Below are positions 3,762-58,346 of a DNA stretch of 64,000 nucleotides, piece after piece. The notes below the pieces were generated by a model. That model made no database searches, was not told the DNA's origin, and worked only from the letters and a program-made list of their open reading frames with translations. Location: assembly GCA_965661855.1 (NCBI GenBank), contig CBFIFL010000003.1, forward strand, positions 4,614 to 68,613, read 5' to 3'. The translations under genes were made by a program, and so were the position numbers. Numbering within the stretch: the stretch's first letter is position 1; the number at the start of each line of letters is the position of its first letter. This DNA is from Flavobacteriales bacterium (GTDB taxonomy: Bacteria; Bacteroidota; Bacteroidia; Flavobacteriales_C; CBFIFL01).

Positions 3762-3799
3762 AAAAAAGGCACTTACTTATGTAGTAAGTGCCTTTTTTG
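3762..3799. terminator. Bidirectional rho-independent terminator between the convergent methyltransferase (+) and higA (-) genes.
   Basis: aaaaaaGGCACTTACTtatgTAGTAAGTGCCttttttg: perfect 11-bp stem flanked by A-run and T-run. Confidence 0.7.
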
Positions 3800-4165
3800 T
3801 TACAGCAAGTTATAAGGCTTAACCAAGATACTGGCCGAAATATGTAACAGTTTTTCAAGCTTAGCTATCATTTCAACAGTCAGCTTTTTTTTGCGATTTA
3901 ATATTTCCGATACACGACTTTTTCCGCCAATGACTCCAATTAGATCCTTTTGTTTTAAGTCCAGCTCTTCCATTCTGATCTTTATGGCTTCTATTGGATC
4001 AGGACTTTCGATTGGGAAATGGGTGTTCTCAAAATTTTCAATTAATAGTGATAAAATTTCTGCTTCATCTCCTTCAATAGAGTTAATAGGAGCATCAAAA
4101 ATATCTTCTAGTCTGTTAATAGCCGAATTATAATCTTCTATATTTTTTATTGGTTTTATATTCAT
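3800..4165 (-). CDS. higA: HigA antitoxin (HTH-XRE family). The likely start is the Met of MNIKPIKNIEDY at 4165, not the longer ORF reaching 4261.
   Basis: N-terminus and C-terminal HTH (KQKDLIGVIGGKSRVSEILNRKKKLTVEMIAKLEKLL) match the HigA/antidote architecture. It starts 4 nt downstream of the higB stop. Confidence 0.75.
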   Translation of the reverse strand: MNIKPIKNIEDYNSAINRLEDIFDAPINSIEGDEAEILSLLIENFENTHFPIESPDPIEAIKIRMEELDLKQKDLIGVIGGKSRVSEILNRKKKLTVEMIAKLEKLLHISASILVKPYNLL

Positions 4166-11556: not shown

Positions 11557-13035
11557 ATGAAAAAGATATTAATTGCTAATAGAGGAGAGATTGCGTTAAG
11601 AGTAATGCGTTCTGCTCGTGAAATGAATATTAAAACAGTTGCTATTTATTCAGAAGTAGATAGAACTGCACCTCATGTTAAATATGCAGATGAAGCGGTT
11701 TGTGTTGGACCAGCAGCATCATCAGAATCGTATTTAAGAGGAGATAAAATTATAGAAGTTTGTAAGGAACTTAACGTGGATGGAATACACCCAGGTTACG
11801 GTTTTTTAAGTGAAAATGCAGATTTCGCAAGAGCTGTAAGTAAGGCTGGATTAATATTAATTGGTCCGTCACCAGAAGCAATGGAAGTAATGGGAGATAA
11901 GTTAGCAGCAAAAACTGCTGTTAAAGCTTATGATATTCCGATGGTTCCAGGAACTGATGAGGCTATTACTGATGTTCCAGCGGCAAAGAAAATCGCAGAA
12001 GGAATCGGTTTCCCAATTTTGATCAAAGCATCTGCCGGTGGTGGAGGTAAAGGGATGAGAATTGTAGAGAATGCTGGTGAGTTTGAAGAACAAATGGATT
12101 TGGCTGTTTCAGAGGCAACCTCAGCATTTGGAGATGGTTCTGTTTTTATTGAAAAATACGTTGGATCACCAAGACATATTGAAATTCAAGTTTTAGCTGA
12201 TAACCATGGAAATGTGGTTCATTTATTTGAAAGAGAATGTTCTGTTCAAAGAAGACATCAAAAGGTTATTGAGGAAGCTCCTTCAGCTGTATTAACAGAT
12301 GAGATCAGAGAAGAAATGGGTCAATGTGCTGTTCGTGTTGCAAAAGCTTGTGACTATAGAGGAGCAGGTACTGTTGAGTTCTTATTGGATGAAGAAAAGA
12401 ATTTCTATTTCTTAGAGATGAACACGCGTTTACAAGTAGAACATCCTGTAACAGAAATGATCACAGGAGTTGATTTAGTGAAAGAGCAAATCAATGTTGC
12501 AAGAGGTGAGGAATTAAGCTTCAAACAAGAAGATTTAAAGATCAACGGACATGCAATGGAAGTTAGAGTTTACGCAGAGGATGCGAAAAACAACTTCTTA
12601 CCAGATATCGGAACACTTCAAACCTATTCAATTCCGAAAGGAAATGGTGTTAGAGTGGATGATGGATTAGAGCAAGGAATGGAGATTCCAATCTATTATG
12701 ATCCAATGATTGCTAAGCTAATTACTCACGGAGATACTCGTGAGGAAGCAATGGATCGAATGATTAGAGCTTGTGATGAATATGTGATTTCAGGATTAGA
12801 AACTACGCTTCCATTTGGAAAGTATGTTATGGAGCATGAAGCCTTCCGTTCAGGTAATTTCGATACTCACTTTGTTAAGAAGCATTTTGATGCTGATAAA
12901 TTAACAAACATGTCTGAGAAAGAAGCAGAAGTAGCAGCAATGGTTTTAGGTGGATTACTTAAAGAAAAATCAGAAGAAATTGTAGTTGCTAACAGTGATA
13001 TGGATTCAAACTGGCAGCAGAATAGAATGTTATAA
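11557..13035 (+). CDS. accC: Biotin carboxylase subunit of acetyl-/propionyl-CoA carboxylase (ATP-grasp).
   Basis: MKKILIANRGEIALRV..., ...GGGGKGMRIV..., ...EMNTRLQVEHPVTE... Confidence 0.85.
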   Translation: MKKILIANRGEIALRVMRSAREMNIKTVAIYSEVDRTAPHVKYADEAVCVGPAASSESYLRGDKIIEVCKELNVDGIHPGYGFLSENADFARAVSKAGLILIGPSPEAMEVMGDKLAAKTAVKAYDIPMVPGTDEAITDVPAAKKIAEGIGFPILIKASAGGGGKGMRIVENAGEFEEQMDLAVSEATSAFGDGSVFIEKYVGSPRHIEIQVLADNHGNVVHLFERECSVQRRHQKVIEEAPSAVLTDEIREEMGQCAVRVAKACDYRGAGTVEFLLDEEKNFYFLEMNTRLQVEHPVTEMITGVDLVKEQINVARGEELSFKQEDLKINGHAMEVRVYAEDAKNNFLPDIGTLQTYSIPKGNGVRVDDGLEQGMEIPIYYDPMIAKLITHGDTREEAMDRMIRACDEYVISGLETTLPFGKYVMEHEAFRSGNFDTHFVKKHFDADKLTNMSEKEAEVAAMVLGGLLKEKSEEIVVANSDMDSNWQQNRML

Positions 13036-13059
13036 TAGACTTTAAATAGTTGTAATAGT

Positions 13060-13092
13060 AAAAGCGCATCTTTTTTAGGTGCGTTTTTTTTG
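13060..13092 (+). terminator. Probable intrinsic terminator of accC.
   Basis: AAAAGCGCA-tcttttttagg-TGCGTTTTT: 9-bp stem including one G·U, followed by a U-run. Confidence 0.4.
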
Positions 13093-13300
13093 TGGTTATA
13101 TGGGAGGTTGAGGTTTAATAGATCCAAGATGCGGATCAAATGAAGGGGGATGGTTGGGCTACCATTATGTAAACCGCGATGTGGTTTGTACAACTCTTGT
13201 TAATTTACGGTACGCGTTAAATATTAAAACAAATCTGTGGAACCTGTGAAATCTGTGGACAAAAAAATAACCCAGTTTAATTGAGTAAAGGTTGGTTAGG

Positions 13301-13376
13301 AGTATTAATTGTTCGGGTGACCGCAAGGGTAGCCCCTACCATGATTGTAACATCACCGTAGGGGCTACCCTTGCGG
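13301..13376 (+). repeat. Long near-perfect inverted repeat: 29-bp arms, 18-nt loop, single T/C difference giving a U·G pair on the + strand.
   Basis: GTTCGGGTGACCGCAAGGGTAGCCCCTAC ... GTAGGGGCTACCCTTGCGGTCGCCCGAAC. The region is GC-rich relative to its surroundings and has no adjacent U-run. Confidence 0.6.
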
Positions 13377-13555
13377 TCGCCCGAACCAAACAACGAAAAT
13401 CTCCGATTTTCCCTCCGTGATATCCAATTGAAATAATTAACAGACGAGATTAGTCTATCCTTGTATCCGTGGTTAAACTTTAATGTGATTCGTTGAACTA
13501 AGGTAGTCTCTAAATAACAGACGGATGGTTCGACTCGGCTCACCAAGCGAGTAGT

Positions 13556-14623
13556 CTACCTACTATACTCAAACACAACAGATTTTACTCTCTTTGTATT
13601 TATACCATCGACTTGTTCTTCTATGATCAAATCTTGTGCTGATTGATTACTAAAGACTTCATCCATAGATTTAATAATTCCTGCAGGAACGTTTGCTTCT
13701 ACAAATAACGCATTCCATTCATCAGAAGTTTTTGTCAGGAAAGCTGGAGACAAGGCTGTTTCTAAATCGTTTCGGTTTGATACTCGTGACTGATTAGTAG
13801 CGAATTTAGGTTCCTTAGTAAGTTCTATTAATCCCAAAATATCACAAAGTAGCTTAAACTGTTTATCTGTGCCAACAGCCAGTACCATATGCTTTCCATC
13901 TTTACATTTGAAATATTCTCCATAGGGAGCAATGTTAGGATGTATACTTCCTTTACGAGAAGGAATGGAATCTCCCATTAGATAGTTCGTTGCTTGATTT
14001 GCTAAAGAGGCAATTCCAGAGTTGATTAAAGAAGCTTCAATTAATCCTCCTTTACCAGTTTTCTCCCGTTCTAATAAAGCACAAAGAATACCTTCCTTTA
14101 TTTGATGAGCGGCCAAGACATCCATAAGCGCAACAGGCATTTTTGTTGCAGGACCTTCACTTTGTCCGTTCATGTGCATAAAACCTGCTTCAGCTTGAAT
14201 AACAACGTCAAAAGCAGCTCTTGGAATATCAGAACCATAACCACTTAAATGAGCATATATTAACTTTGGATTCTCTTCTTTCAAGGATTTATATGCAAGG
14301 TTGAACTTTTCAGCATCACCGTATTTGAAGTTAGATATGAGTATATCGCTTTCAGCAATCCACTGTCTAACTTTTTTATTGTCATCAGGATCTTTAAGGT
14401 TTAAAAAATGGACTTCCTTACCCCAGTTTACAGAACAGTAATATCCGGAAATATTAGCTTCTTTATCTTCCTTAGGAAGCTTCCATTTTCTGGTCATGTC
14501 ACCAGATGGATGTTCTACTTTTTTGACCTCACAACCTAATTCAGCAAAGAACATTCCTACCGATGGTCCAGCTAAAACAGAGGCTAACTCAACAATCTTA
14601 AGATCCTGAAAAAAGCTAAACAT
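13556..14623 (-). CDS. Family III CoA-transferase (CaiB/BaiF/Frc-like).
   Basis: N-terminus ...LKIVELASVLAGPSVGMFFAELGCEVKKVE... and a family-III fold. 355 aa. Confidence 0.7.
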   Translation of the reverse strand: MFSFFQDLKIVELASVLAGPSVGMFFAELGCEVKKVEHPSGDMTRKWKLPKEDKEANISGYYCSVNWGKEVHFLNLKDPDDNKKVRQWIAESDILISNFKYGDAEKFNLAYKSLKEENPKLIYAHLSGYGSDIPRAAFDVVIQAEAGFMHMNGQSEGPATKMPVALMDVLAAHQIKEGILCALLEREKTGKGGLIEASLINSGIASLANQATNYLMGDSIPSRKGSIHPNIAPYGEYFKCKDGKHMVLAVGTDKQFKLLCDILGLIELTKEPKFATNQSRVSNRNDLETALSPAFLTKTSDEWNALFVEANVPAGIIKSMDEVFSNQSAQDLIIEEQVDGINTKRVKSVVFEYSR

Positions 14624-35955: not shown

Positions 35956-38900
35956 ATGCATAAAAAGCTATATCATATAGTGTTTTTGTGCCTTTTTGTT
36001 ATATCCTTAATTCCTAGTGAATTGAGGGGACAGGGTACTCAAGATTTTGAGAACGAAAAGGAACTCATAAAGGTAGCGGACAAACACTTCGAAAAAGAAG
36101 AGTTTGTATCGGCGCTTTTTATGTACTCTCAATTGGCGTCAACATATCCAAAAAATTACGAATACAATTATCGCTACGGAGTCTGTTTATTATACGGTTC
36201 TGAGGATAAATCAAGTCCCATTATTTTCCTGAATTATGCTCTTGAAGGTCCTGATGTTTCTCCTAAAGTCTATTATTACTTAGGAAAGTCTTATCATCTA
36301 AGCTATCGCTTTGATCAAGCCATTAAATACTATAAACTATTTGAATTGAAGTATGCTGAGAAAGACTTTATGAGGTTTGAAACCGATCGATTGATCCAAC
36401 AATGTGAGACGGCTAAGTCGATGTTGGATAATATCAAGGAAATCAATGTTTACGATAAAAAGACATTGGATGATAAGGAATTCTTTAGAGCTTATCGTTT
36501 AGAAGGTTTTAAAGGAAATATACTTGTTGTACCTGTTGAAATTCAGTCTGATTATGATATCAAGAAGGAGTTTAAAACAGTAACCTTCCATAATCCAAAT
36601 TATGAGTCCATTTACTTTGCTTCTAAAGGAAAGAAAGGAAGTGGAGGTTCTGATATATATAAGAGGAATAAACTGGTTACAGGTGTTTGGGGAGAACCAA
36701 TAGCTCTTGGAATGAATGTTAACACTCGTTACGATGAGAACTATCCTTTCTTACATCCGGATGGAGTAACGCTTTATTTCTGTTCGAAAGGACATAATTC
36801 AATTGGTGGATATGATGTGTTTAAATCGAAGTTAGATACTGCCACTAATATCTGGGGTAAACCAAGCAACGTAGGTTTTGCTATTAACTCACCTGGGGAT
36901 GATATTATGTATGTGACCGATGAGTTTAAGAACGCAGCTTATTTTGCCTCTAATCGTTCGAACAGACAAGGAGAGATTACAATTTATAAGATAACGAGTG
37001 ATAAGAAAACGAAGAATTATAAGGTTATCAAAGGTTTACTTAATCAGGATGAACAACCTTTAGCTAATTCAGAGATTACAGTATTTGATTCAAAGACAGG
37101 GGAAGTTGTCGGAGTTTATCAATCTGATTTTGACGGTGAGTACTATATAACCATTCCGGAAGATGTTACAGAAATCGTTTATGAAGTCAAACTGAGAGGA
37201 GAGAAAACGGTGAGACAAGAAATAAGCGGATTAAGCGATGAAGGCTACGAACAGAAAATATCAATTGATTCAGAGTCTTTATCAATGATCATTACAGAAT
37301 CTGAACCAATTGAAATTTCAGCTGATGATAAGGCCAATGCTTTAGCTCAGAACTCATCTCTGAATGTTAATCAAGCTGAAGATATCGCATTTAACACCAA
37401 GCCTATTAATTATAACGCTAATGAGGAGGAAGAGGAGGAAGAGGCTGAAGCGGTTGAGGAAGTCGAACAATCTGCCTTTTCTGCAGATACGGATTATACT
37501 ATTGATACCGATTCTGATTCTGATAATGAATCAGAATCAGAGTTTGTAGCTTCTAATACACAAATAGTTGACGATGCCTATCAAGATGCTGAAGAATCAA
37601 GGCTAGATGTTGAGAATATTAAAAAGCAGTTGGACGTTGCATACATGATTGCATCGGATAAGAATGAGAAAGCGAAAAGACTAGCTAGTGATATTCAAAA
37701 GTTAAACAAGGACTTAGAAGCAGGGTACGACGAAGAAAAGGCGATGGAAGTTTCTGCTAAAGAAGCAGAGCTTACGAAGCTTAAACAAGAGGTTTTGGTT
37801 ACTTATAATGTAGCTAAGAATCTAGAAGAGAACTACAAGAATAAAGAGGAAGAGGCTGTATTTGCACAGAAGTATGCAGACGATTTAAAGGAGGCTATTT
37901 CATTATCAAGTGCAGAAAAAGCAATTGAGATGTTAGAGTCGACTCGAGAAGAGTTAGACCGTATCTATAAAAAGAACAAGGATGCTTTTAATATTGATGA
38001 TTTAGGTGGTGATGCTGATGAGAAAATTGTATCTCTAAAACAATTGTCTCAAGATGTGGATTCTGAAATTAGTGCTATCGTAGAGGAGCAAACAGCTATT
38101 AAGCAAAGAGCTGAAGAAGAAACAGAGGATTATGTGAAGCAGTCTATTTTACTGGAGGCAGAAGACTTAGAAGAAGAGTTGATTACTTTAAGATCAAAGA
38201 AGTCCAAAATCGACGGAGAGTTAGCTTCTATTGAATCGGAACAACAACAATTTACGGAGAACCAAGAAATATTTGATGAGATTGCTTCAGCTGAATCAAG
38301 AAACTTCAGTATGGAAGAGATTCAAAAGGCTGAAGAGGCTAAGAGTGATTTAAGTAAGGATGTTGAAATCTACGCGAATAGTGAAACAACTGAAGACATG
38401 ATTGAGAGTTTAGCTGATGAAAATGAAGGAGAATTAGCAATAACATCGGATGATGAGAATCCAAGTTTGGATGAAATAAATGAGCATTTTGATGAGATAG
38501 AGGAGAAGGAAGAATTCAGTCCGGTTGAAAAACTTGCAGAGTTAAACGGTAAAGTGAAAATTCAGGAAAGAAGGTTGAGGTCTAAAAAGGAAGAATTGGA
38601 TATTTTGGAAAGTACACTTGAAAACGAAACAGACTTGAATGTTAAATCTGATATCTACAAACAATTGGTGATTCTAGTGAACAAGACAGAAGAAGAGATG
38701 GATCGTTTGAAGGAATTACAAGGGGATTACAATGCTTACAATGAACAGGAAGGTTTGAATCAGCCTGACTTAGAAATTAAGGAGACAGTCGTTGAATCGG
38801 TTGTTCTGAGTGATTCAGGGGAAATGATCGATTTTGATACTTTCTTAGAAGAAATAGAGGCAGAGCAATTAGCATCAGCGAATGCTGAAGAAAGTGAGAG

Positions 38901-41900
38901 TGGAAGCGATGATGCAATTGTAGCTGTGAGTCCTGATGTCACGGAAGTAATTGAAGTAGAGGCAGACGAGTTAAATGGTAATACGGATTCGGTGGATTTA
39001 GCAACGGAAATAGATGAGCCTTCAGACGAGGAGGAAGCTGTTGAACTGAGTGATGAAGAAATTGCCAGTAGTTCTTTTGAAACGTTAAATGAAGAGCAAC
39101 AGCTTTATAAATTGGAGCTTGAATTCGATATGGATTCATCAAGTAATGAAGATGTTCAACGAGGTTTAGAGTTAGCTTTCGGACTTAAAACGGATCCGAA
39201 TTTTGAATACGGTCCTAATGCAATTGTTCAAGCAAACGTAAATAACGCTAGAAGATTGGAACGTCAAGCCTTAAATACTTATCTACTGTTTAAAAAGAAA
39301 AGAAAAGAGGCGGATGAGCAAATAAAAGCATCTAAGGCCAAGAAGATGATTGAGGAAGCGATTGAATTAGAAAGTGAATCTAAACGTTTACAAGAAAGTG
39401 CTTCAGCTAATTACGCTATTGCAAACAAGGAGGAGTTCAAGTACAACCAAACTCAATTGAGAACAGCAATTGCAACGTTTAAATTTGAAGAGACACCAGA
39501 ATACTCCGTTGATAGAAAAGCTGGAGAGGTTTTGATTGAAGAAACAACAAGAATCAGATCAGCTTTAATGACAACTTATGATGCTGATGAAAGAATTAAA
39601 AAAATCAATGATGCTTATAATAAAGAGTTAGCGGCGATCGCAGGACAAAAGAAGTATGTGGAGCGTTTAGGTCAAGAAGAGGACGTGGAAGAGTCGTTTG
39701 TTTACTTGAATGAAGGAGAAAGTAACCCGACAAATGAAGACTTAGAAAGTGGTCAATCAGAAACGGAGAATACTGACGAAATCGAGAGTGTGAGTGCAGA
39801 AGAAGGTCCGTTTATAGCTGGGACAGATGAGGAGGTTTTATCAATGGAAGAAGTTAATTCAATGAGTGATGAAGAGTTGTTGACAAAAGCGGATAATCAA
39901 ACGATTGAAGGAATCGCGAGTACTGCTTTAAATATCAGATCAAATATTTCTACAGCTCCAGAAGAAGATAAAGCTAAGTTGATGCAACGAGCGGCTTTGT
40001 TAGAAGAAGTTGCTAGAACGAAAAGATTGAAGTTTGTTCAGAAAGAATACAACGATTACTTGTTGATGCTGAAGAAGAATGAAGAGGTTAGAAGAAGAAT
40101 GGCTATGCGTGATGAAAATAGCGAGGCTTTATTCTTAGTAGGATTGGTAGAAAGAGACATTAAAACTCAAACGGAGGCATTAGAGAAAAGTAAGGAAGAT
40201 TTAGATTTGTATTCTGGAGAAACACAGATCAGTGCATATAAAACAGCCTTGTTAAACCAACAAATGATAATCAATAAGCAAACTCAGGTATTAAAGACAT
40301 ACGCCGAGAAAAATCCTGCAGTAAGTACTGAGGATTTGGCTTATGTAAATGCTTTACCAGATACGATTCAGAATGTATCATCTAATTTTGTAATCGTCGA
40401 TTCAAATGACCCAGATTTACTGATTACTGATAGTCCTGAAGAAGTAAGTCCTGAAGTAGAAGTTGTTGAACCAGAAATTGCTTCAACTGAAATACCAGAA
40501 CCTGCTGTTATAAGTGGTGAAGAAGAAGGTGAAGGTGATGAAGAAGCTAATGAGGAATTGGCTTTAAACATCCAAACAGAGAACAATACAGAGGAAGGCG
40601 AGGAGCTAACTGTTGGTGATAGTGATGAGTCGGATGAAAATAACGAGCTTGTTAATGAGGAGATAGCTAGTGAAGTAGTTTCTGAAACTGCTGTTGATTC
40701 AAATGAAGAAATTCAGAGTCCTGTTGTTGAAGAAGTTGCAGTAGCACCAGTTACTGAAGAGGAAGAAGCCTTGAGTCCAGAGGTTCAAGAGCAACTGAAA
40801 ATATACACGCAGTTAAAAGCGAAGTCACTTAAAGAGTATACGGTAGTTGAATCGGATATTCAAAAAGCTCAAGAGATTCAGAATGAAGCAATAGAATTAG
40901 AGAATGAGGCAGATAATAAATTAAGACAAACAGAGTCTGCTCAAACTGAAGCTGAAATTGAGGCATTGATTGCAGAATCAGATAAGTTAAGAGCTAAAGC
41001 AATTGACAAAAGAAAGAAAGCAAATCGTTTGGCGGCTAAAGTGGATAACGATTTAGCTTCAGCTAAAAGCGTTTATAGAGAAGCTCAGAAAGTATTGAAT
41101 TCTGATGTGGTTCAAGCAAATGTTGAAGATGGAGATCGTATTGATATTGATTACACCAGTATTGAAAGACAAAGAGAGTCCATTGAGGCAGTAGATGAGT
41201 TTGTTGCTGAGTTAGAATCAAACAGAGCGGCAAATCAAAACACAAGTTCATCAAGAACCATAACAGCTCCATTTGAAAGTGAATATATTGTTTTGAATGG
41301 TGACGCGAAATATTCTGATGCGAATCCAATACCTATAGATCCAGCTATGCCAGAAGGTTTAGTGTTTAAGGTTCAGGTAGGAGCATTTAGAAATAAGATT
41401 CCACAAGACTTGTTTAAAGGAATTGCTCCATTACAAGGGGAGTCTACTCCTCAAGGATTTATTAGATATACAGCTGGAGCATTTAGTGGATTTGAGCCAG
41501 CCAATATGGCTAAGCGAGAGATTAGAAAAATTGGATATAAAGATGCTTTTGTTGTTGTTTACTTAAATGGTAGACGAATTTCATTAGGAGAAGCATTTGC
41601 CATGATGGATAATGAATCTCCAAATGATAAGTCTGTTAGATCAACACAAATTAACAAAGAAGTACAAGAGTTAAATGGAGCGGGAATAGGAGAGTCTTAC
41701 AGAGATCCAAGCATAGCAGAGTTAGTTCAAGATATCAATGAGACTAAAGGTGTAATGTATACGGTGCAGATTGGTTATTACTCTGAGTCTATTCAACCTG
41801 AGAACTTATTCAATTTAGATCCAATTTACGAAGACGATAATGATGGAGGTTATAGATACATGCATGGGATTTATAAGGATTTGAAAGCTGCTTCTAATCG

Positions 41901-42303
41901 TAAGACAGAAGTTAGAGCAATTGGAATCGAAGATGCATTCGTAATAGCTTATAAGGACGGTAATAAGATTTCAGTGGCCGATGCTAATCGTTTGATTGAT
42001 GAAGGAGCCTCTACTGTGGATGGCTCAAAGGAGTATAAGTTGAATACGGAGAATACTTCTGGAATTGTCTATAAAGTTCAAGTAGGTGCCTACTCTCAGC
42101 AAGTACCATTAGAAAGAGCTATGATATTTGTTCAGTTTGCGGATCAGGGCATAGAGCACTTCCAAAATGCAAATGGACTTACAATCTATAGTATTGGTGG
42201 CATGGATTCATACCAAGCTGCCCAATCGTTGAAAGAAACAATTCAAGCAGCTGGTATCGTAGATGCTTTCATTACTAAATACAGTAACGGGAAGAGGTTG
42301 TAA
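35956..42303 (+). CDS. Giant (2115 aa) cell-envelope protein: signal peptide, TPR-like helical region, PD40/TolB-like β-propeller repeats, ~1400-aa acidic (E/D-rich) coiled-coil/low-complexity spacer, three C-terminal SPOR domains.
   Basis: Signal MHKKLYHIVFLCLFVISLIPSELRGQ; PD40-like ...SDIYKRNKLVTGVWGEPIALGMNVNTRYDENYPFLHPDGVTLYFCS...GGYDVFKS...; SPOR-like ...LVFKVQVGAF..., ...YTVQIGYY..., ...IVYKVQVGAY... each followed by ...DAFV... segments. Confidence 0.7.
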   Translation: MHKKLYHIVFLCLFVISLIPSELRGQGTQDFENEKELIKVADKHFEKEEFVSALFMYSQLASTYPKNYEYNYRYGVCLLYGSEDKSSPIIFLNYALEGPDVSPKVYYYLGKSYHLSYRFDQAIKYYKLFELKYAEKDFMRFETDRLIQQCETAKSMLDNIKEINVYDKKTLDDKEFFRAYRLEGFKGNILVVPVEIQSDYDIKKEFKTVTFHNPNYESIYFASKGKKGSGGSDIYKRNKLVTGVWGEPIALGMNVNTRYDENYPFLHPDGVTLYFCSKGHNSIGGYDVFKSKLDTATNIWGKPSNVGFAINSPGDDIMYVTDEFKNAAYFASNRSNRQGEITIYKITSDKKTKNYKVIKGLLNQDEQPLANSEITVFDSKTGEVVGVYQSDFDGEYYITIPEDVTEIVYEVKLRGEKTVRQEISGLSDEGYEQKISIDSESLSMIITESEPIEISADDKANALAQNSSLNVNQAEDIAFNTKPINYNANEEEEEEEAEAVEEVEQSAFSADTDYTIDTDSDSDNESESEFVASNTQIVDDAYQDAEESRLDVENIKKQLDVAYMIASDKNEKAKRLASDIQKLNKDLEAGYDEEKAMEVSAKEAELTKLKQEVLVTYNVAKNLEENYKNKEEEAVFAQKYADDLKEAISLSSAEKAIEMLESTREELDRIYKKNKDAFNIDDLGGDADEKIVSLKQLSQDVDSEISAIVEEQTAIKQRAEEETEDYVKQSILLEAEDLEEELITLRSKKSKIDGELASIESEQQQFTENQEIFDEIASAESRNFSMEEIQKAEEAKSDLSKDVEIYANSETTEDMIESLADENEGELAITSDDENPSLDEINEHFDEIEEKEEFSPVEKLAELNGKVKIQERRLRSKKEELDILESTLENETDLNVKSDIYKQLVILVNKTEEEMDRLKELQGDYNAYNEQEGLNQPDLEIKETVVESVVLSDSGEMIDFDTFLEEIEAEQLASANAEESESGSDDAIVAVSPDVTEVIEVEADELNGNTDSVDLATEIDEPSDEEEAVELSDEEIASSSFETLNEEQQLYKLELEFDMDSSSNEDVQRGLELAFGLKTDPNFEYGPNAIVQANVNNARRLERQALNTYLLFKKKRKEADEQIKASKAKKMIEEAIELESESKRLQESASANYAIANKEEFKYNQTQLRTAIATFKFEETPEYSVDRKAGEVLIEETTRIRSALMTTYDADERIKKINDAYNKELAAIAGQKKYVERLGQEEDVEESFVYLNEGESNPTNEDLESGQSETENTDEIESVSAEEGPFIAGTDEEVLSMEEVNSMSDEELLTKADNQTIEGIASTALNIRSNISTAPEEDKAKLMQRAALLEEVARTKRLKFVQKEYNDYLLMLKKNEEVRRRMAMRDENSEALFLVGLVERDIKTQTEALEKSKEDLDLYSGETQISAYKTALLNQQMIINKQTQVLKTYAEKNPAVSTEDLAYVNALPDTIQNVSSNFVIVDSNDPDLLITDSPEEVSPEVEVVEPEIASTEIPEPAVISGEEEGEGDEEANEELALNIQTENNTEEGEELTVGDSDESDENNELVNEEIASEVVSETAVDSNEEIQSPVVEEVAVAPVTEEEEALSPEVQEQLKIYTQLKAKSLKEYTVVESDIQKAQEIQNEAIELENEADNKLRQTESAQTEAEIEALIAESDKLRAKAIDKRKKANRLAAKVDNDLASAKSVYREAQKVLNSDVVQANVEDGDRIDIDYTSIERQRESIEAVDEFVAELESNRAANQNTSSSRTITAPFESEYIVLNGDAKYSDANPIPIDPAMPEGLVFKVQVGAFRNKIPQDLFKGIAPLQGESTPQGFIRYTAGAFSGFEPANMAKREIRKIGYKDAFVVVYLNGRRISLGEAFAMMDNESPNDKSVRSTQINKEVQELNGAGIGESYRDPSIAELVQDINETKGVMYTVQIGYYSESIQPENLFNLDPIYEDDNDGGYRYMHGIYKDLKAASNRKTEVRAIGIEDAFVIAYKDGNKISVADANRLIDEGASTVDGSKEYKLNTENTSGIVYKVQVGAYSQQVPLERAMIFVQFADQGIEHFQNANGLTIYSIGGMDSYQAAQSLKETIQAAGIVDAFITKYSNGKRL

Positions 42304-44817: not shown

Positions 44818-44820
44818 AAG

Positions 44821-44860
44821 AAAAGGGACGCAATCCTAAGAAGAGATTGCGTCCTTTTTA
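44821..44860. terminator. Bidirectional terminator between the relA/spoT gene (+) and the DUF5686 gene (-).
   Basis: aaaaGGGACGCAATCctaagaagaGATTGCGTCCttttt. Confidence 0.7.
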
Positions 44861-47464
44861 TTACCACATCCATCGACGTGAATTTCTAAAGTAAGTGTTA
44901 AACCCGACTTTTATTCTCGTATCAAATACATTATCGGTATTGCCTAGTTTAAATACTTGATAAATTCCTATTTTATTCCTCGACCCGAAGATTTTGTATT
45001 CCCTTGAAATTCCAGCGAATGCTTCAACATGTAAAAGGTCTTGTTCTTTAGTATATAAGAATGAACCTCCTACATCCGTTTTCAGTTTTAATTTTTTGAA
45101 TAGCGGGATTTGATTTAAAATAGCTCCATTAAAATGGTGAAGGTAATGACCTTGGAACGTCCAATCTCTTGTGAAAATAGTCGTGTCTAATAAGCTATAT
45201 GCGTTGATAGGGTGTTGTAGAAAATAATTATCTGATGCTATGAACGATTTTCTAGCCAGGAAAATTTCACTTGCTTCACCATAAGATTTACTCATATCAA
45301 ATGCGTACCTGCTTTCACCCACAACACCAGTGGTAATGGTTTGGTCAAAACCAAAACTAAGTTTGGTGTAATTGAAAGCACTACCGGCAAAATCCGGAAT
45401 ACCTTGATGAATAGATCCATAGAACTCAGGCCATTTTGAACCTAAGATAACTTTTCGCTTAGGCTCCATGTAATATTTTTGTTTAGGTCTAAACAAGAGT
45501 CGAAACCCTGTTTCAAATTGGTTAAAAGGGTCGAAAGCAAGAGGTGTTATGTTATTGAAAGCCATGTTTACCCATTCGTAGCTTTCCATTTCATGAACGG
45601 AAGTGATTTTTGAATAGGATATTTGACCTCTAATATAAAAGCCATTTACTATTTCTCTCATGGCTGCGATATATCCACCTTCATTTCGATAGTAATTAGC
45701 AATGCTGGCCTGTTCTAAACTCATACTAAAGGATCCATTTATAAACTGGTATTCTTTAGCAATATCTGCATAGATCCAAGTGGGCTTCACGGCATCAATC
45801 ATCGAAGCTCCCGCAAAGTTATAGGTTATATCCTCATTTAAATACCCATAACTAGCTTGTCCTTCAAGGTTTAACTTCTTTTCATTTTTAAAGGTCTTTT
45901 GTGATCCAAAATATAGTCCGTTTCTATATCCTCCTATTTGCAGGATCGATTCGATATCGAATATGTCAGTCAACGTAGGGAACAAAAATCGAATGTTTTT
46001 CTCTCTGTTATAATACTCGAAGTTGTATATAATATTATCAGGGGTAAAAGTATTGTTTGCCGAGTCAAGGGAGTCTAAATAAACTTTAGAATTCTGTACT
46101 TGAAAGAGCGAGTCTCTGTACGCGATGACTTTTATTTCGGCTTTAGACAATGGTTCTGGACGGATGTTCTCCCAATAGGAACTGTCTTGGTCAACAGCCT
46201 CTTGGCTAGTGATTAGTAAAGCATTATTAAAAAACTTTTTACCGTAATCTTTATTGAATTCGAAGTCTGAATACCTAACAGTGGTGTTCCCAACCAGCTT
46301 ACTTGCTCTTAAATAGTAAGTGAATTCTTGACGATTTACCAACCACATGCTGTCATTAATCCATTCGTATTCTTGTTGAATTCTAAATTTATCGTAATAG
46401 TTTAAAGCGTAATTGTTCAACTTTAAATCTATTTTATAGATAGCAAAGGAACCGTCCAAAATATGAATTTCACCTTCAAACAAAGCCGTTTGATTTCTTC
46501 TTGGTGTTACTTTTATGTGGTGTATGTATCGACCATTTTCTCCATAAGATTTAATCAACTTAAACTTATACGGTAGGGCAGAGCCTTTGCTTAAAGGACT
46601 CACGATTGGGAAGTCACTAAGAATTTCAACATGAACTAGGTTTTCATAAAAATCAAAATGACCTTCTGCAGTGGTTAGGTAAAAAAGATTCCAGTAATTA
46701 CCTGCCGTTTTAAAACCTTCACGTATTTCCTTTACATCCTTTCCGGCTTCATAATACCGCTTAGCATAAACTTCTGCAAAGCTCATACGAGCTTCGGCTT
46801 TAGGACTGTAAGTCTTTTGAGGGACGCTGTCTTTTTGCAGTGAATCTACTTTAGAAGTATCTTTTTTTTCGAAAAGTTTCTTTAACCAACGTTCTCTGTT
46901 CTTCTCTTTTTCGGCTCTTAAGGCTGTTTTGACGGAGTCTTTTTCAAGTTTTTGTGCGTATCTACCATAATTGTCTTTCAGCTCCTCCCGATTCATTGGT
47001 CTCATTACCCCTTTGATGTAAATATTTGACTCAGTTGTTGAGAATTGAAATTGATTGGATTCCTTGTTTTCTATTGCTTGCTTAATTATAGCATAAGCTG
47101 GGTCTCGTCTTTTCTTCTTTATGGTTACCTCTTCCAGCTCAACAGACTTCTCTTTTAAATAGACGTTTTGAACTTGATCTTTATTAATAACTGTAATCTC
47201 GAACTTTTTAGTTTCATAACCGATTGCAGAGAAAACAATGCTGTAAAATCCATTCTCCAGTTTTAATTCGTATTTCCCATCTAGCTCACTGGATACTCCG
47301 TATTGCATTTCAGTATGGGATGACCTATCTGCATTAAAGACTTGAATGGAAGCGAAAGGAATAGCTTCATTGTTTTCATTTAATACAAAGCCTCTTACAA
47401 AACGATATTGTGAGAAACTCGAAAAAGCAAAAAGCAAGAAGCTAAGGATAAGAGTCGTTTTCAT
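44861..47464 (-). CDS. DUF5686 family protein with an N-terminal carboxypeptidase-regulatory-like domain.
   Basis: Signal peptide, then ...VRGFVLNENNEAIPFASIQV... (CarbopepD_reg-like), and a long β-rich C-terminal region. Confidence 0.65.
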   Translation of the reverse strand: MKTTLILSFLLFAFSSFSQYRFVRGFVLNENNEAIPFASIQVFNADRSSHTEMQYGVSSELDGKYELKLENGFYSIVFSAIGYETKKFEITVINKDQVQNVYLKEKSVELEEVTIKKKRRDPAYAIIKQAIENKESNQFQFSTTESNIYIKGVMRPMNREELKDNYGRYAQKLEKDSVKTALRAEKEKNRERWLKKLFEKKDTSKVDSLQKDSVPQKTYSPKAEARMSFAEVYAKRYYEAGKDVKEIREGFKTAGNYWNLFYLTTAEGHFDFYENLVHVEILSDFPIVSPLSKGSALPYKFKLIKSYGENGRYIHHIKVTPRRNQTALFEGEIHILDGSFAIYKIDLKLNNYALNYYDKFRIQQEYEWINDSMWLVNRQEFTYYLRASKLVGNTTVRYSDFEFNKDYGKKFFNNALLITSQEAVDQDSSYWENIRPEPLSKAEIKVIAYRDSLFQVQNSKVYLDSLDSANNTFTPDNIIYNFEYYNREKNIRFLFPTLTDIFDIESILQIGGYRNGLYFGSQKTFKNEKKLNLEGQASYGYLNEDITYNFAGASMIDAVKPTWIYADIAKEYQFINGSFSMSLEQASIANYYRNEGGYIAAMREIVNGFYIRGQISYSKITSVHEMESYEWVNMAFNNITPLAFDPFNQFETGFRLLFRPKQKYYMEPKRKVILGSKWPEFYGSIHQGIPDFAGSAFNYTKLSFGFDQTITTGVVGESRYAFDMSKSYGEASEIFLARKSFIASDNYFLQHPINAYSLLDTTIFTRDWTFQGHYLHHFNGAILNQIPLFKKLKLKTDVGGSFLYTKEQDLLHVEAFAGISREYKIFGSRNKIGIYQVFKLGNTDNVFDTRIKVGFNTYFRNSRRWMW

Positions 47465-56524: not shown

Positions 56525-57228
56525 TGAAGTGTTTTCTTTTTTCTCTGTTTATAATCCCAATTGTATTATTTGGTGATGATGATAGAGTTAAAGGTAAGTA
56601 CTGTATCATACCTGAAGCTAGAAGGCTAGTTATAGGAATGACTACGGGTTCAGCATTTAATGTTGCTGCAAATACTACAATTAGCCAAGCCGGTTTTCCG
56701 GATATTAATTTAAAGGCGAAATGGGCAACTGAAGCTTTTAAAATGCCAATTTATTGGGATTTGCTTGCCGAATATTCCGAAAGAAGATTTCAGGTGGGGG
56801 TTCACTTTATGCATCATAAATTGGTTCTCACCAATGAACATGCTTTACTAGAAAAAATATCAATTACCCATGGCTATAATATCTTTAACCTTTACGGAGG
56901 GTATCGTTTTTTAGCCAATTCAAAGCACTATTCATTTTATGGTTTGATTGGTGTTGGAGTTGCTTTTTCTCATCCTGAAGGAAAAGTTAGAGGTCAAAAT
57001 ATATCACGTTTAGAAGGTGTTCCTTTATTGTCTGGAAATTATGATATGTCTTACCCAAACTTTGAATTAGCTATTCATAAAGATTGGATGTTAAATAAGA
57101 AACTTGCTGTTCGATCAGCTTTTAAGACAACTTATTTCAATGGGAAGATTGAAACCCGCAATGGCTACATAGATTTAAACACCTTAAGTTTTCACGTCAA
57201 TCTAGGTTTATCTTATCAAATACAATAA
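56524..57228 (+). CDS. Hypothetical outer-membrane β-barrel protein. The ATG at 56524 overlaps the hemF stop (TAATG).
   Basis: Signal peptide MKCFLFSLFIIPIVLFG, β-strand periodicity, C-terminal ...LSYQIQ. Confidence 0.4.
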   Translation: MKCFLFSLFIIPIVLFGDDDRVKGKYCIIPEARRLVIGMTTGSAFNVAANTTISQAGFPDINLKAKWATEAFKMPIYWDLLAEYSERRFQVGVHFMHHKLVLTNEHALLEKISITHGYNIFNLYGGYRFLANSKHYSFYGLIGVGVAFSHPEGKVRGQNISRLEGVPLLSGNYDMSYPNFELAIHKDWMLNKKLAVRSAFKTTYFNGKIETRNGYIDLNTLSFHVNLGLSYQIQ

Positions 57229-57262
57229 GGGGACGCAACCCTAAATAGGGTTGCGTCCCCTT
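57227..57262. terminator. Bidirectional terminator hairpin overlapping both convergent stop codons.
   Basis: AAGGGGACGCAACCCTAaataGGGTTGCGTCCCCTT: 15-bp perfect stem. Confidence 0.65.
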
Positions 57263-58346
57263 ATTGTAGAATTCCCAAACGCTCTAATACATTCAGCCTC
57301 TTAATCTTACCCGTTTCAGTTCTTTCAAATTTATTGATGAAGTAAACCCTCTTAGGTTTTTCGTACTTGTTTAAAGATTCCGGAAAGCTTGGTTCGAAAG
57401 TCTTAATAGACTCAATGACTAAAATTACAATCTGACCAAATTTATCATCGGCTTGAGTGGAAATAAAAAATGCTTCCTTGATAGACTCGCTTAGTTTTTC
57501 TTCGATGACTTCAGGAAATAGTTTAACTCCACCTGAATTAATCATATTGTCTTGTCTTCCTAACCATTGAAAACCGTTGCCTGTTATTCTTACAACATCC
57601 TTCGTAGATAAACCTTCTACTCCAATGTCTTTTCCGTCAATATGTAGACAATCATTTTTAATAGAAATATCGATACCTTCTACTGTCTCAAAATATTTGT
57701 TCTCAACAGGAGATACTTGTCGAAGTGCTATGTGAGATAGGGTTTCTGTCATTCCGAAAGTAGAGTAACAGTTTACTTCAAATGATCTTAAATGCTGTAG
57801 TAAGGTAGTATCGACTTTACCACCACCAATGATTAAATTCTTGATTAGCTTAAACTGATCACTATGATTAGAAATGCTTTCTTGGACTTGCATAGGAACC
57901 ATGGCACAGAAATCATATTCCTGATTGATGTATTGTAAAGCTTGGTTGGACGGAGCTAAAACAGTTAGTTTAAGTTTACGTTCAATTGCTCTGATAATCA
58001 TCATTCTTCCCCCAATGTATTGCGGATTCATTACTAAAAGGGAACTATCACCAGCCTTTAAATCGAAAAAGTCATTGGTCTTTTTAGCGCTGGCTAATAA
58101 GTGTTCTTTCTTAACTAGGATGTTCTTTGAGCTTCCAGTAGTACCGGAAGTTGGTATACTAAATTCGTATTCTTTGAAAAAGTCCTCAATTAACTTCAAT
58201 GTTTGAATTTGCCATGGCACAGTGCATTCAGGAATTCCTCCGAATGACTCCTGAAAATCTATAGTAAGCGTATTGTTATCAACCTTAAACATTAAACCTT
58301 GACCTTTAAACTCTTTAGCTGTACTTTTGCTCTGAATTAAAAACAA
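57261..58346 (-). CDS. Short-form AMP-binding acyl-CoA ligase (O-succinylbenzoate-CoA ligase-like).
   Basis: ...IPTSGTTGSSKNI... AMP-binding P-loop; 361 aa. Confidence 0.55.
   Translation of the reverse strand: MFLIQSKSTAKEFKGQGLMFKVDNNTLTIDFQESFGGIPECTVPWQIQTLKLIEDFFKEYEFSIPTSGTTGSSKNILVKKEHLLASAKKTNDFFDLKAGDSSLLVMNPQYIGGRMMIIRAIERKLKLTVLAPSNQALQYINQEYDFCAMVPMQVQESISNHSDQFKLIKNLIIGGGKVDTTLLQHLRSFEVNCYSTFGMTETLSHIALRQVSPVENKYFETVEGIDISIKNDCLHIDGKDIGVEGLSTKDVVRITGNGFQWLGRQDNMINSGGVKLFPEVIEEKLSESIKEAFFISTQADDKFGQIVILVIESIKTFEPSFPESLNKYEKPKRVYFINKFERTETGKIKRLNVLERLGILQ

Follow-up and report, generated by a model that had tools for sequence, protein, structure and literature searches.

A 29-bp hairpin between convergent genes of a Flavobacteriales bacterium is very probably an inverted pair of GTAG-family REPs

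As described in the portions of Quentin et al. 2018 (PMC6006769) drawn on here, TnpA_REP proteins of subclass 2.4 carry the motifs NH[IFV]H, WQ and YIxNNP, and are abundant in Cyanobacteria and Bacteroidetes and scattered in other phyla. Their REPs belong to the type called there canonical long REPs: GT[AG]G stands at the foot of the hairpin, and the lowest three pairs of the stem are G-C. 'Double-foot' forms occur too, and REPs lying in frame within the tnpA_REP gene are given as unique to this subclass. In the scheme of Bertels et al. 2017 (PMC5581495), subclass 2.4 is Group 4 of the RAYTs, and the corresponding portions of that paper report Group 4 in 17 bacterial classes, an average of about 14 occurrences per replicon for the flanking 16-mers, and RAYTs as usually single-copy genes. 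Two further systems resemble the locus reported here in architecture. In the REPINs of P. fluorescens (Bertels & Rainey 2011, PMC3116915) and the BIMEs of E. coli, inverted REPs with a short spacer likewise form one long hairpin that is intergenic, sits at 3' gene ends and is vertically inherited in a lineage; unlike the present element, however, they belong with RAYT Groups 2 and 3, their sequences are particular to a species, and they number up to hundreds in a genome. The REP of E. coli, whose complex with TnpA_REP has been solved (4ER8; Messing et al. 2012, PMC3479197), also consists of GTAG and an imperfect hairpin, but with longer, bulged stems.

We analysed a stretch of 64,000 nucleotides from contig CBFIFL010000003.1 of a Flavobacteriales bacterium (the window), in which a preliminary description had reported a 29-bp near-perfect stem-loop and had read it mainly as a structured RNA. 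We propose, with a probability of about 0.88, that this hairpin is an inverted head-to-head pair of 25-nt REPs (REPIN/BIME-like) of the GTAG family cognate to RAYT subclass 2.4 / Group 4, which makes it an ordinary doublet within a REP/RAYT group already known rather than a structured RNA of a new kind.

Both arm sequences of the preliminary description are present exactly in the window, as 29-nt arms at 13311-13339 (GTTCGGGTGACCGCAAGGGTAGCCCCTAC) and 13358-13386 (GTAGGGGCTACCCTTGCGGTCGCCCGAAC), so that the hairpin spans 13311-13386 and the coordinates first given for it (13301-13376) were 10 bases too low. The arms are complementary except at one position, T13318 opposite G13379, as had been noted, and enclose a spacer of 18 nt with an inner stem of 4-5 bp. 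The hairpin lies, again as described, in a 520-nt gap between the convergent genes accC (biotin carboxylase, 11557-13035, + strand) and a family III CoA-transferase gene (13556-14623, - strand). Its GC content is 60.5% against 35.6% for the window, and no T/U run adjoins it on either strand; on both points the earlier account was right. As RNA, the + strand of the hairpin folds at -67.4 kcal/mol (z = -11.6, with 0 of 200 shuffles as good) and the - strand at -70.9 kcal/mol, and the DNA folds of the two strands are -39.5 and -39.0 kcal/mol. The 29-mer arm was absent, at up to 3 mismatches, from every shuffle of the window. The hairpin signal is far beyond chance. The canonical intrinsic terminator of accC (stem and T-run, 13060-13088, + strand) stands outside the element, and the remaining spacer sequence (13089-13310 and 13387-13555) is repeated neither elsewhere in the window nor in the fetched loci. 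A tRNA/tmRNA scan gave no match, and no protein with words in common turned up for the 43-aa peptide encoded across the hairpin, which was used to look for spurious ORFs over other copies of it. Elsewhere in the window, an ORF of 2115 aa occupies 35956-42303 on the + strand.

Each arm of the hairpin holds a 25-nt unit of the form GTAG followed by GGGCTACC-CTTGC-GGTCGCCC. REP copy 2, in the right arm (GTAGGGGCTACCCTTGCGGTCGCCC, 13358-13382, + strand), has the GTAG head, an 8-bp stem made by GGGCTACC and GGTCGCCC with a T.C mismatch at pair 5, and the CTTGC loop. REP copy 1, in the left arm (GTAGGGGCTACCCTTGCGGTCACCC, 13315-13339, - strand), differs from copy 2 by one base, a G-to-A change (C to T at 13318 on the + strand) that falls in a CpG and breaks pair 4 of the small hairpin of copy 1. 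The GTAG stands directly at the foot of the hairpin in both copies (13358-13361 on the + strand and 13339-13336 on the - strand), the foot of the stem is GGG/CCC, with three G-C pairs, and the 25-mer as single-stranded DNA is predicted to fold into an 8-bp hairpin. Outside the two units, the doublet is completed by a lineage-specific 4-bp extension (GTTC/GAAC) and by the 18-nt spacer between the two GTAG heads (CATGATTGTAACATCACC, 13340-13357), which differs among related doublets. The whole doublet (13311-13386, assigned to no strand) would be able to form the 29-bp hairpin or a cruciform. Thus, the geometry of a REPIN is present, with inverted REPs, a spacer and one long hairpin, and a comparable doublet among the fetched loci (L100, a metagenome contig) has another spacer.

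To see which of the two nested structures is maintained, the variation of the unit is informative. The covariation set comprised 93 distinct 25-mers from the fetched loci, for which the only anchor was GTAGGGG...CCC. Across these 93 variants the five inner pairs of the small stem are Watson-Crick in 74% of cells, compared with 41% in column shuffles (48% at the maximum in 1000 shuffles) and with 31-48% when the 3' partner is slid by one column. Two to three Watson-Crick types occur per inner pair; pair 12-18, for example, is C-G in 36 variants, G-C in 32 and T-A in 6. The CTTGC loop is conserved over the whole set, in which GTAG and the GGG/CCC foot are fixed as well, as they were anchored. 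By a wide margin, the commonest form in the metagenomes is a fully paired variant (GTAGGGGCAACCCTTGCGGTTGCCC, 128 instances in the fetched loci among the matches listed), and the exact window form, with its T.C mismatch at stem pair 5, recurs in five phyla. Since the small stem covaries and the CTTGC loop is fixed, selection acts on the small REP hairpin and its GTAG, which is what a single-stranded DNA hairpin recognised by a protein would lead one to expect. Read in this way, the 29-bp helix amounts to two REPs placed head-to-head and is not selected as RNA. Covariation, to which the preliminary description had looked for a sign of RNA structure, is thus found for the 8-bp REP hairpin and not for the 29-bp helix. 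REPs of the GTAG superfamily have a conserved GT[AG]G 0-2 nt to the 5' side of a short hairpin, form an imperfect palindrome of 20-40 nt whose stem is kept by compensatory change, lie outside genes and occur as many dispersed copies in one genome. With GTAG at the foot, a covarying short stem and a confirmed extragenic site in the spacer between accC and the CoA-transferase gene, the unit is very probably a member of the GTAG REPs.

The unit is found in other bacteria. A scan for the 21-mer GACCGCAAGGGTAGCCCCTAC in one genome per GTDB species returned 12 loci, in Sphingobacterium, Parapedobacter, Mucilaginibacter, Chitinophagaceae, Ginsengibacter, Peribacteria (CPR), Ardenticatenales, Anaerolineae, Ktedonobacteraceae, Fibrimonas and Desulfobacterium. 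The full 25-mer is exact in 9 of the 12, and the loci belong to Bacteroidota, Chloroflexota, Patescibacteria, Fibrobacterota and Desulfobacterota. In a sixth phylum, Bacillota, there is a variant with one base changed. A degenerate pattern searched in metagenomes gave at least 120 loci, on contigs of 31-72% GC; the metagenome matches listed exclude the window's own locus and hence give no copy count for the source organism. In the window itself, together with 10 kb beyond one of its ends (about 74 kb), there is one doublet, that is, two REP copies. No further copy was found in the window when up to 3 mismatches to the 29-mer or up to 7 to the 25-mer were allowed, nor with GTAGGGGC or a generic scan for GTAG hairpins, and no REP was found in the adjoining 10 kb. 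Viral contigs and phage records had no copy of the arm.

Copies elsewhere are mostly single. Some form inverted pairs, either head-to-head (L006 and L100) or, more often, tail-to-tail; in the window the GTAG heads face the spacer, whereas most of the fetched doublets of the GTAG REP family are of the tail-to-tail ('double foot') kind. Spacers of the doublets measure 7 nt in L100, 15 nt in L006, 18 nt in the window and 21 nt in a strain variant of the source organism (L022). A doublet of the window's subtype was found in L100, a marine-like metagenome contig of 37% GC; it reads TTTCGGGCGACCGCAAGGGTAGCTCCTAC-7 nt-GTAGGGGCTACCCTTGCGGTCGCCCGAAA, shares the TTCGGG/CCCGAA extension with the window doublet and lies in another convergent setting, where an asparaginase gene faces an unknown 129-aa ORF. 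The T variant of the unit seen in copy 1 is present in Ginsengibacter (L003) and Anaerolineae (L010), where it is single or has another partner. In a finished genome, the Vescimonas fastidiosa replicon pMM35_01 has about 30 REPs of the GTAGGGGC type in 40 kb, nearly all of them intergenic, and the REP of the window differs at just one base from GTAGGGGCGACCCTTGCGGTCGCCC, which is among them; a tblastn search of this replicon found no RAYT. We observed that the Vescimonas stretch (L149, NZ_AP023416.1 330587-370630) holds REPs of several stem subfamilies, clustered and none of them annotated, and that pMM35_01 is an 861-kb 'plasmid' with the housekeeping genes glyS, rpsT, rpsO, pnp and mnmE.

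An all-against-all comparison of the ORFs near the motif gave one shared protein, a Y1 (HUH) transposase. A RAYT-like gene lies beside or around the REP in 19 of 132 REP-bearing loci (the 12 GTDB loci and the metagenome matches listed), a co-occurrence that we judge, by estimate, to be far above chance because a genome usually has just one RAYT gene (PMC5581495). The gene of Sphingobacterium psychroaquaticum, at 6950-7498 of L011, scores 30.7 bits against Pfam Y1_Tnp (cutoff 23), and a score above the Pfam cutoff was also obtained in a Peribacteria contig (L002). The best NCBIfam model for the Sphingobacterium gene is REP_Tyr_transpos (REP-associated tyrosine transposase); the RAYT scores against that model, 67 and 56 bits, are below its curated cutoff of 80. 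The only solved structure that this transposase matches is 4ER8, the E. coli TnpA_REP, with an alignment over WQ...EH...Y that covers the GTAG-binding region and the catalytic tyrosine; the sequence relation is remote (E = 0.003). Its motifs NHIH, WQ and YIRDNP fit NH[IFV]H, WQ and YIxNNP of subclass 2.4. The gene stands between inverted REPs, with GTAGGGGCTGGGCTTGTCCCCGCCC upstream and the exact window 25-mer 64 nt downstream.

REPs on both sides of a RAYT gene were found in four loci (L011, L039, L079 and L084), and REPs inside the RAYT ORF in 11 (L002, L026, L039, L044, L048, L079, L084, L124, L132, L140 and L142). In the Peribacteria contig (L002, 4641-4786), two REPs, among them the exact window 25-mer, lie in the ORF between the HUH motif (PDHLHGII) and WQ/Y, and the frame is locally intact. 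Two observations on these genes may be added: the N-terminal part of the Peribacteria gene is in another frame, through a frameshift or an assembly error, and six REP copies lie within one RAYT gene of L084. As judged from sequence comparison, the window unit is identical base for base to REPs that flank RAYT genes of other bacteria or lie inside them.

Taken across the REP-bearing loci, every feature listed for subclass 2.4 has its match here. The 5' GTAG at the hairpin foot and the three G-C pairs at the bottom, the identical REPs that flank RAYTs elsewhere or sit in frame within them, and a patchy spread over several phyla, including Bacteroidetes, at low copy numbers, are all shared with subclass 2.4 / Group 4. 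Unlike those systems, the window has a single doublet and no RAYT: tblastn found none in the 64 kb, and no sign of current RAYT/REP activity was seen in the window. The low density of REPs is nevertheless within the range for Group 4 RAYTs (PMC5581495).

Strain contigs and relatives bear on the history of the locus. Six full-length strain contigs from other seawater metagenomes, with an identical accC protein, carry an identical hairpin; seawater samples in which the stretch is present include ERZ985131, ERZ925107 and JGI 3300028008. In a further strain contig (L021), position 13318 is C, and the arms pair perfectly. The strain variant L022, whose accC protein is also identical, is without the segment 13130-13310 and has a decayed doublet, GTTCGGACAGCCCCTAC-21 nt-GTAGGGGCTCCCCTGCGGTGCCCGAAC, with a 12-nt deletion in one arm. 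In relatives with a CoA-transferase 66-84% identical, the REP is absent downstream of that gene, and other neighbours or other sequence are found there. Absence in relatives, identity in strains and decay in L022 show the element to be a lineage-specific acquisition, passed on vertically and subject to decay, as has been described for REPINs.

The surrounding spacer has some features of its own. The segment of about 180 nt at 13130-13310 carries two copies of AAATCTGTGGA, at 13231 and 13249 (18 nt apart), and holds a REP-like fragment, GGGCTACCATT (13156-13166); no other copy of the segment was found in the window or in any fetched locus. On the other side of the hairpin, just after the CoA-transferase stop on the - strand, about 70 nt at 13485-13555 are 79% identical to positions 4069-4134 of a relative (L143), with GCTTGGTGAGC..AGTCGAACCA.CCGTCTGTTA as the core, and the CoA-transferase of L143 is only 84% identical. 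The fold of this conserved region is no better than that of shuffles (z = -0.2).

Three independent metagenome assemblies end inside the hairpin, at 13361 (L013), 13364 (L020) and 13338 (L021), which shows that REP doublets fragment MAGs. We considered these contig ends as a sign of a multi-copy repeat and rejected that reading, as being inverted is enough for a repeat to break a de Bruijn graph assembly.

Could the main role of the hairpin be factor-independent termination, or stabilisation of the 3' end, for the CoA-transferase/kdsA operon on the - strand, with the REP co-opted or incidental? We consider this unlikely. No canonical terminator for the - strand was found between the CoA-transferase stop (13556) and the hairpin, the doublet stands between convergent genes here as it does in L100, and the portions of PMC6006769 drawn on here mention reports that REPs of E. 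coli can end transcription and protect the mRNA upstream of them from decay, all of which would suit such a role. However, the hairpin is flanked by a U-run on neither side and is 170 nt away from the CoA-transferase stop codon, and the relatives do without it. Other convergent pairs in the window, moreover, have compact terminators of the A-run/stem/T-run type at their stop codons: palindromes, perfect or nearly so, placed exactly between the genes at 3762-3798 and 44818-44862, and a 23-bp perfect palindrome at 57221-57268 that overlaps both stop codons, all three of which look like ordinary bidirectional intrinsic terminators. Terminating or stabilising activity is in any case compatible with a REP doublet, and it does not replace the REP explanation.

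The preliminary description favoured a structured RNA on the + strand, such as an sRNA, a 3'UTR-derived RNA, or a processing site for RNase III or another protein, and it rested this on the U.G wobble that a + strand transcript would have where a - strand transcript has A.C. The hairpin is indeed very stable as RNA, and a 29-bp duplex, if transcribed, would offer RNase III a substrate. The supposed strand asymmetry is not borne out, however: the - strand folds as well as the + strand or better, and the DNA folds are equal. A single wobble site is nearly uninformative because a perfect palindrome that undergoes one transition, whichever it is, will show a wobble in one of its strands and A.C in the opposite one; in addition, position 13318 is polymorphic, with C in one strain contig (L021), and the T variant also occurs in unpaired REP copies in other phyla. 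The wobble thus does not indicate selection on a + strand RNA. The accC terminator lies upstream of the hairpin, so that accC transcription should mostly stop before reaching it, and no promoter-like site reading into the hairpin was found (sigma-70 type or Bacteroidetes TAnnTTTG) on the + strand. An Rfam scan of the whole window gave no match at gathering thresholds, and at a permissive E-value over 12800-13800 it gave only weak sub-threshold matches to generic miRNA hairpin models. Covariation backs the 8-bp REP hairpin and not the long helix, and both the spacer and the arrangement of the doublet vary between loci. We therefore regard a + strand RNA as highly improbable. The evidence favours instead another candidate of the preliminary description, a site for a recombinase or nuclease, or a dispersed REP-like element, in the form of the REP doublet.

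A remnant end of some other mobile element or recombination site (an IS200/IS605 subterminal hairpin, an integron attC or a TIR-type MITE) would also be palindromic, GC-rich on an AT-rich background and missing in relatives, and RAYTs are related to the IS200/IS605 TnpA, but we give this origin scarcely any credence, as no transposase, TnpB/IscB or integrase lies near the hairpin in the window, the flanks of the hairpin are unique sequence with no second end, the unit matches the REPs of REPtrons base for base and not IS ends, and viral contigs and phage records have no copy.

How the proposed REP doublet may have arisen can be outlined by analogy with E. coli TnpA_REP and IS200/IS605 TnpA, whose mechanism is summarised in the portions of PMC6006769 drawn on here. 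The functional form would be single-stranded DNA, in which each 25-nt REP folds into a small hairpin. A monomeric HUH/Y1 enzyme would read this hairpin together with the 5' GTAG and then cleave and rejoin the strand, and such cutting and rejoining would occasionally spread REPs or REP pairs to further intergenic positions, typically those at gene 3' ends. The long 29-bp hairpin would then be a by-product of two REPs lying in inverted orientation, and between convergent genes the doublet would be harmless. If the CoA-transferase operon reads through on the - strand, one may speculate, by the same analogy, that the doublet could act as a stabilising or pausing hairpin at the 3' end.

The proteobacterial REPs are species-specific, whereas GTAGGGGCTACCCTTGCGGTCGCCC, with its variants of one to two bases, is common to at least five phyla. 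The portions of PMC6006769 and PMC5581495 drawn on here contain no explicit statement that an exact 25-mer is common to several phyla; a cross-phylum 25-mer is plausible given the patchy, HGT-like distribution published for subclass 2.4, and the identity may already be known to specialists. Because the exact 25-mer is common to at least five phyla, in hosts of 31-72% GC, we tentatively raise the possibility that the Group 4 / subclass 2.4 RAYT-REP pair spreads horizontally with an almost frozen recognition hairpin, and that the copy here, in the AT-rich genome of a marine member of the Bacteroidota, is perhaps an orphan left after loss of the enzyme; we hold this to be conceivable rather than likely.

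The main value of the REP assignment is for annotation, since long GC-rich hairpins in AT-rich genomes are easily mistaken for sRNAs, riboswitch-like elements or odd terminators. An inverted REP pair also accounts for the fact that several metagenome assemblies break exactly inside the hairpin. Finally, a 25-nt REP that occurs across phyla would offer a handy system in which to study the constraint that a Y1 HUH enzyme places on its DNA hairpin.
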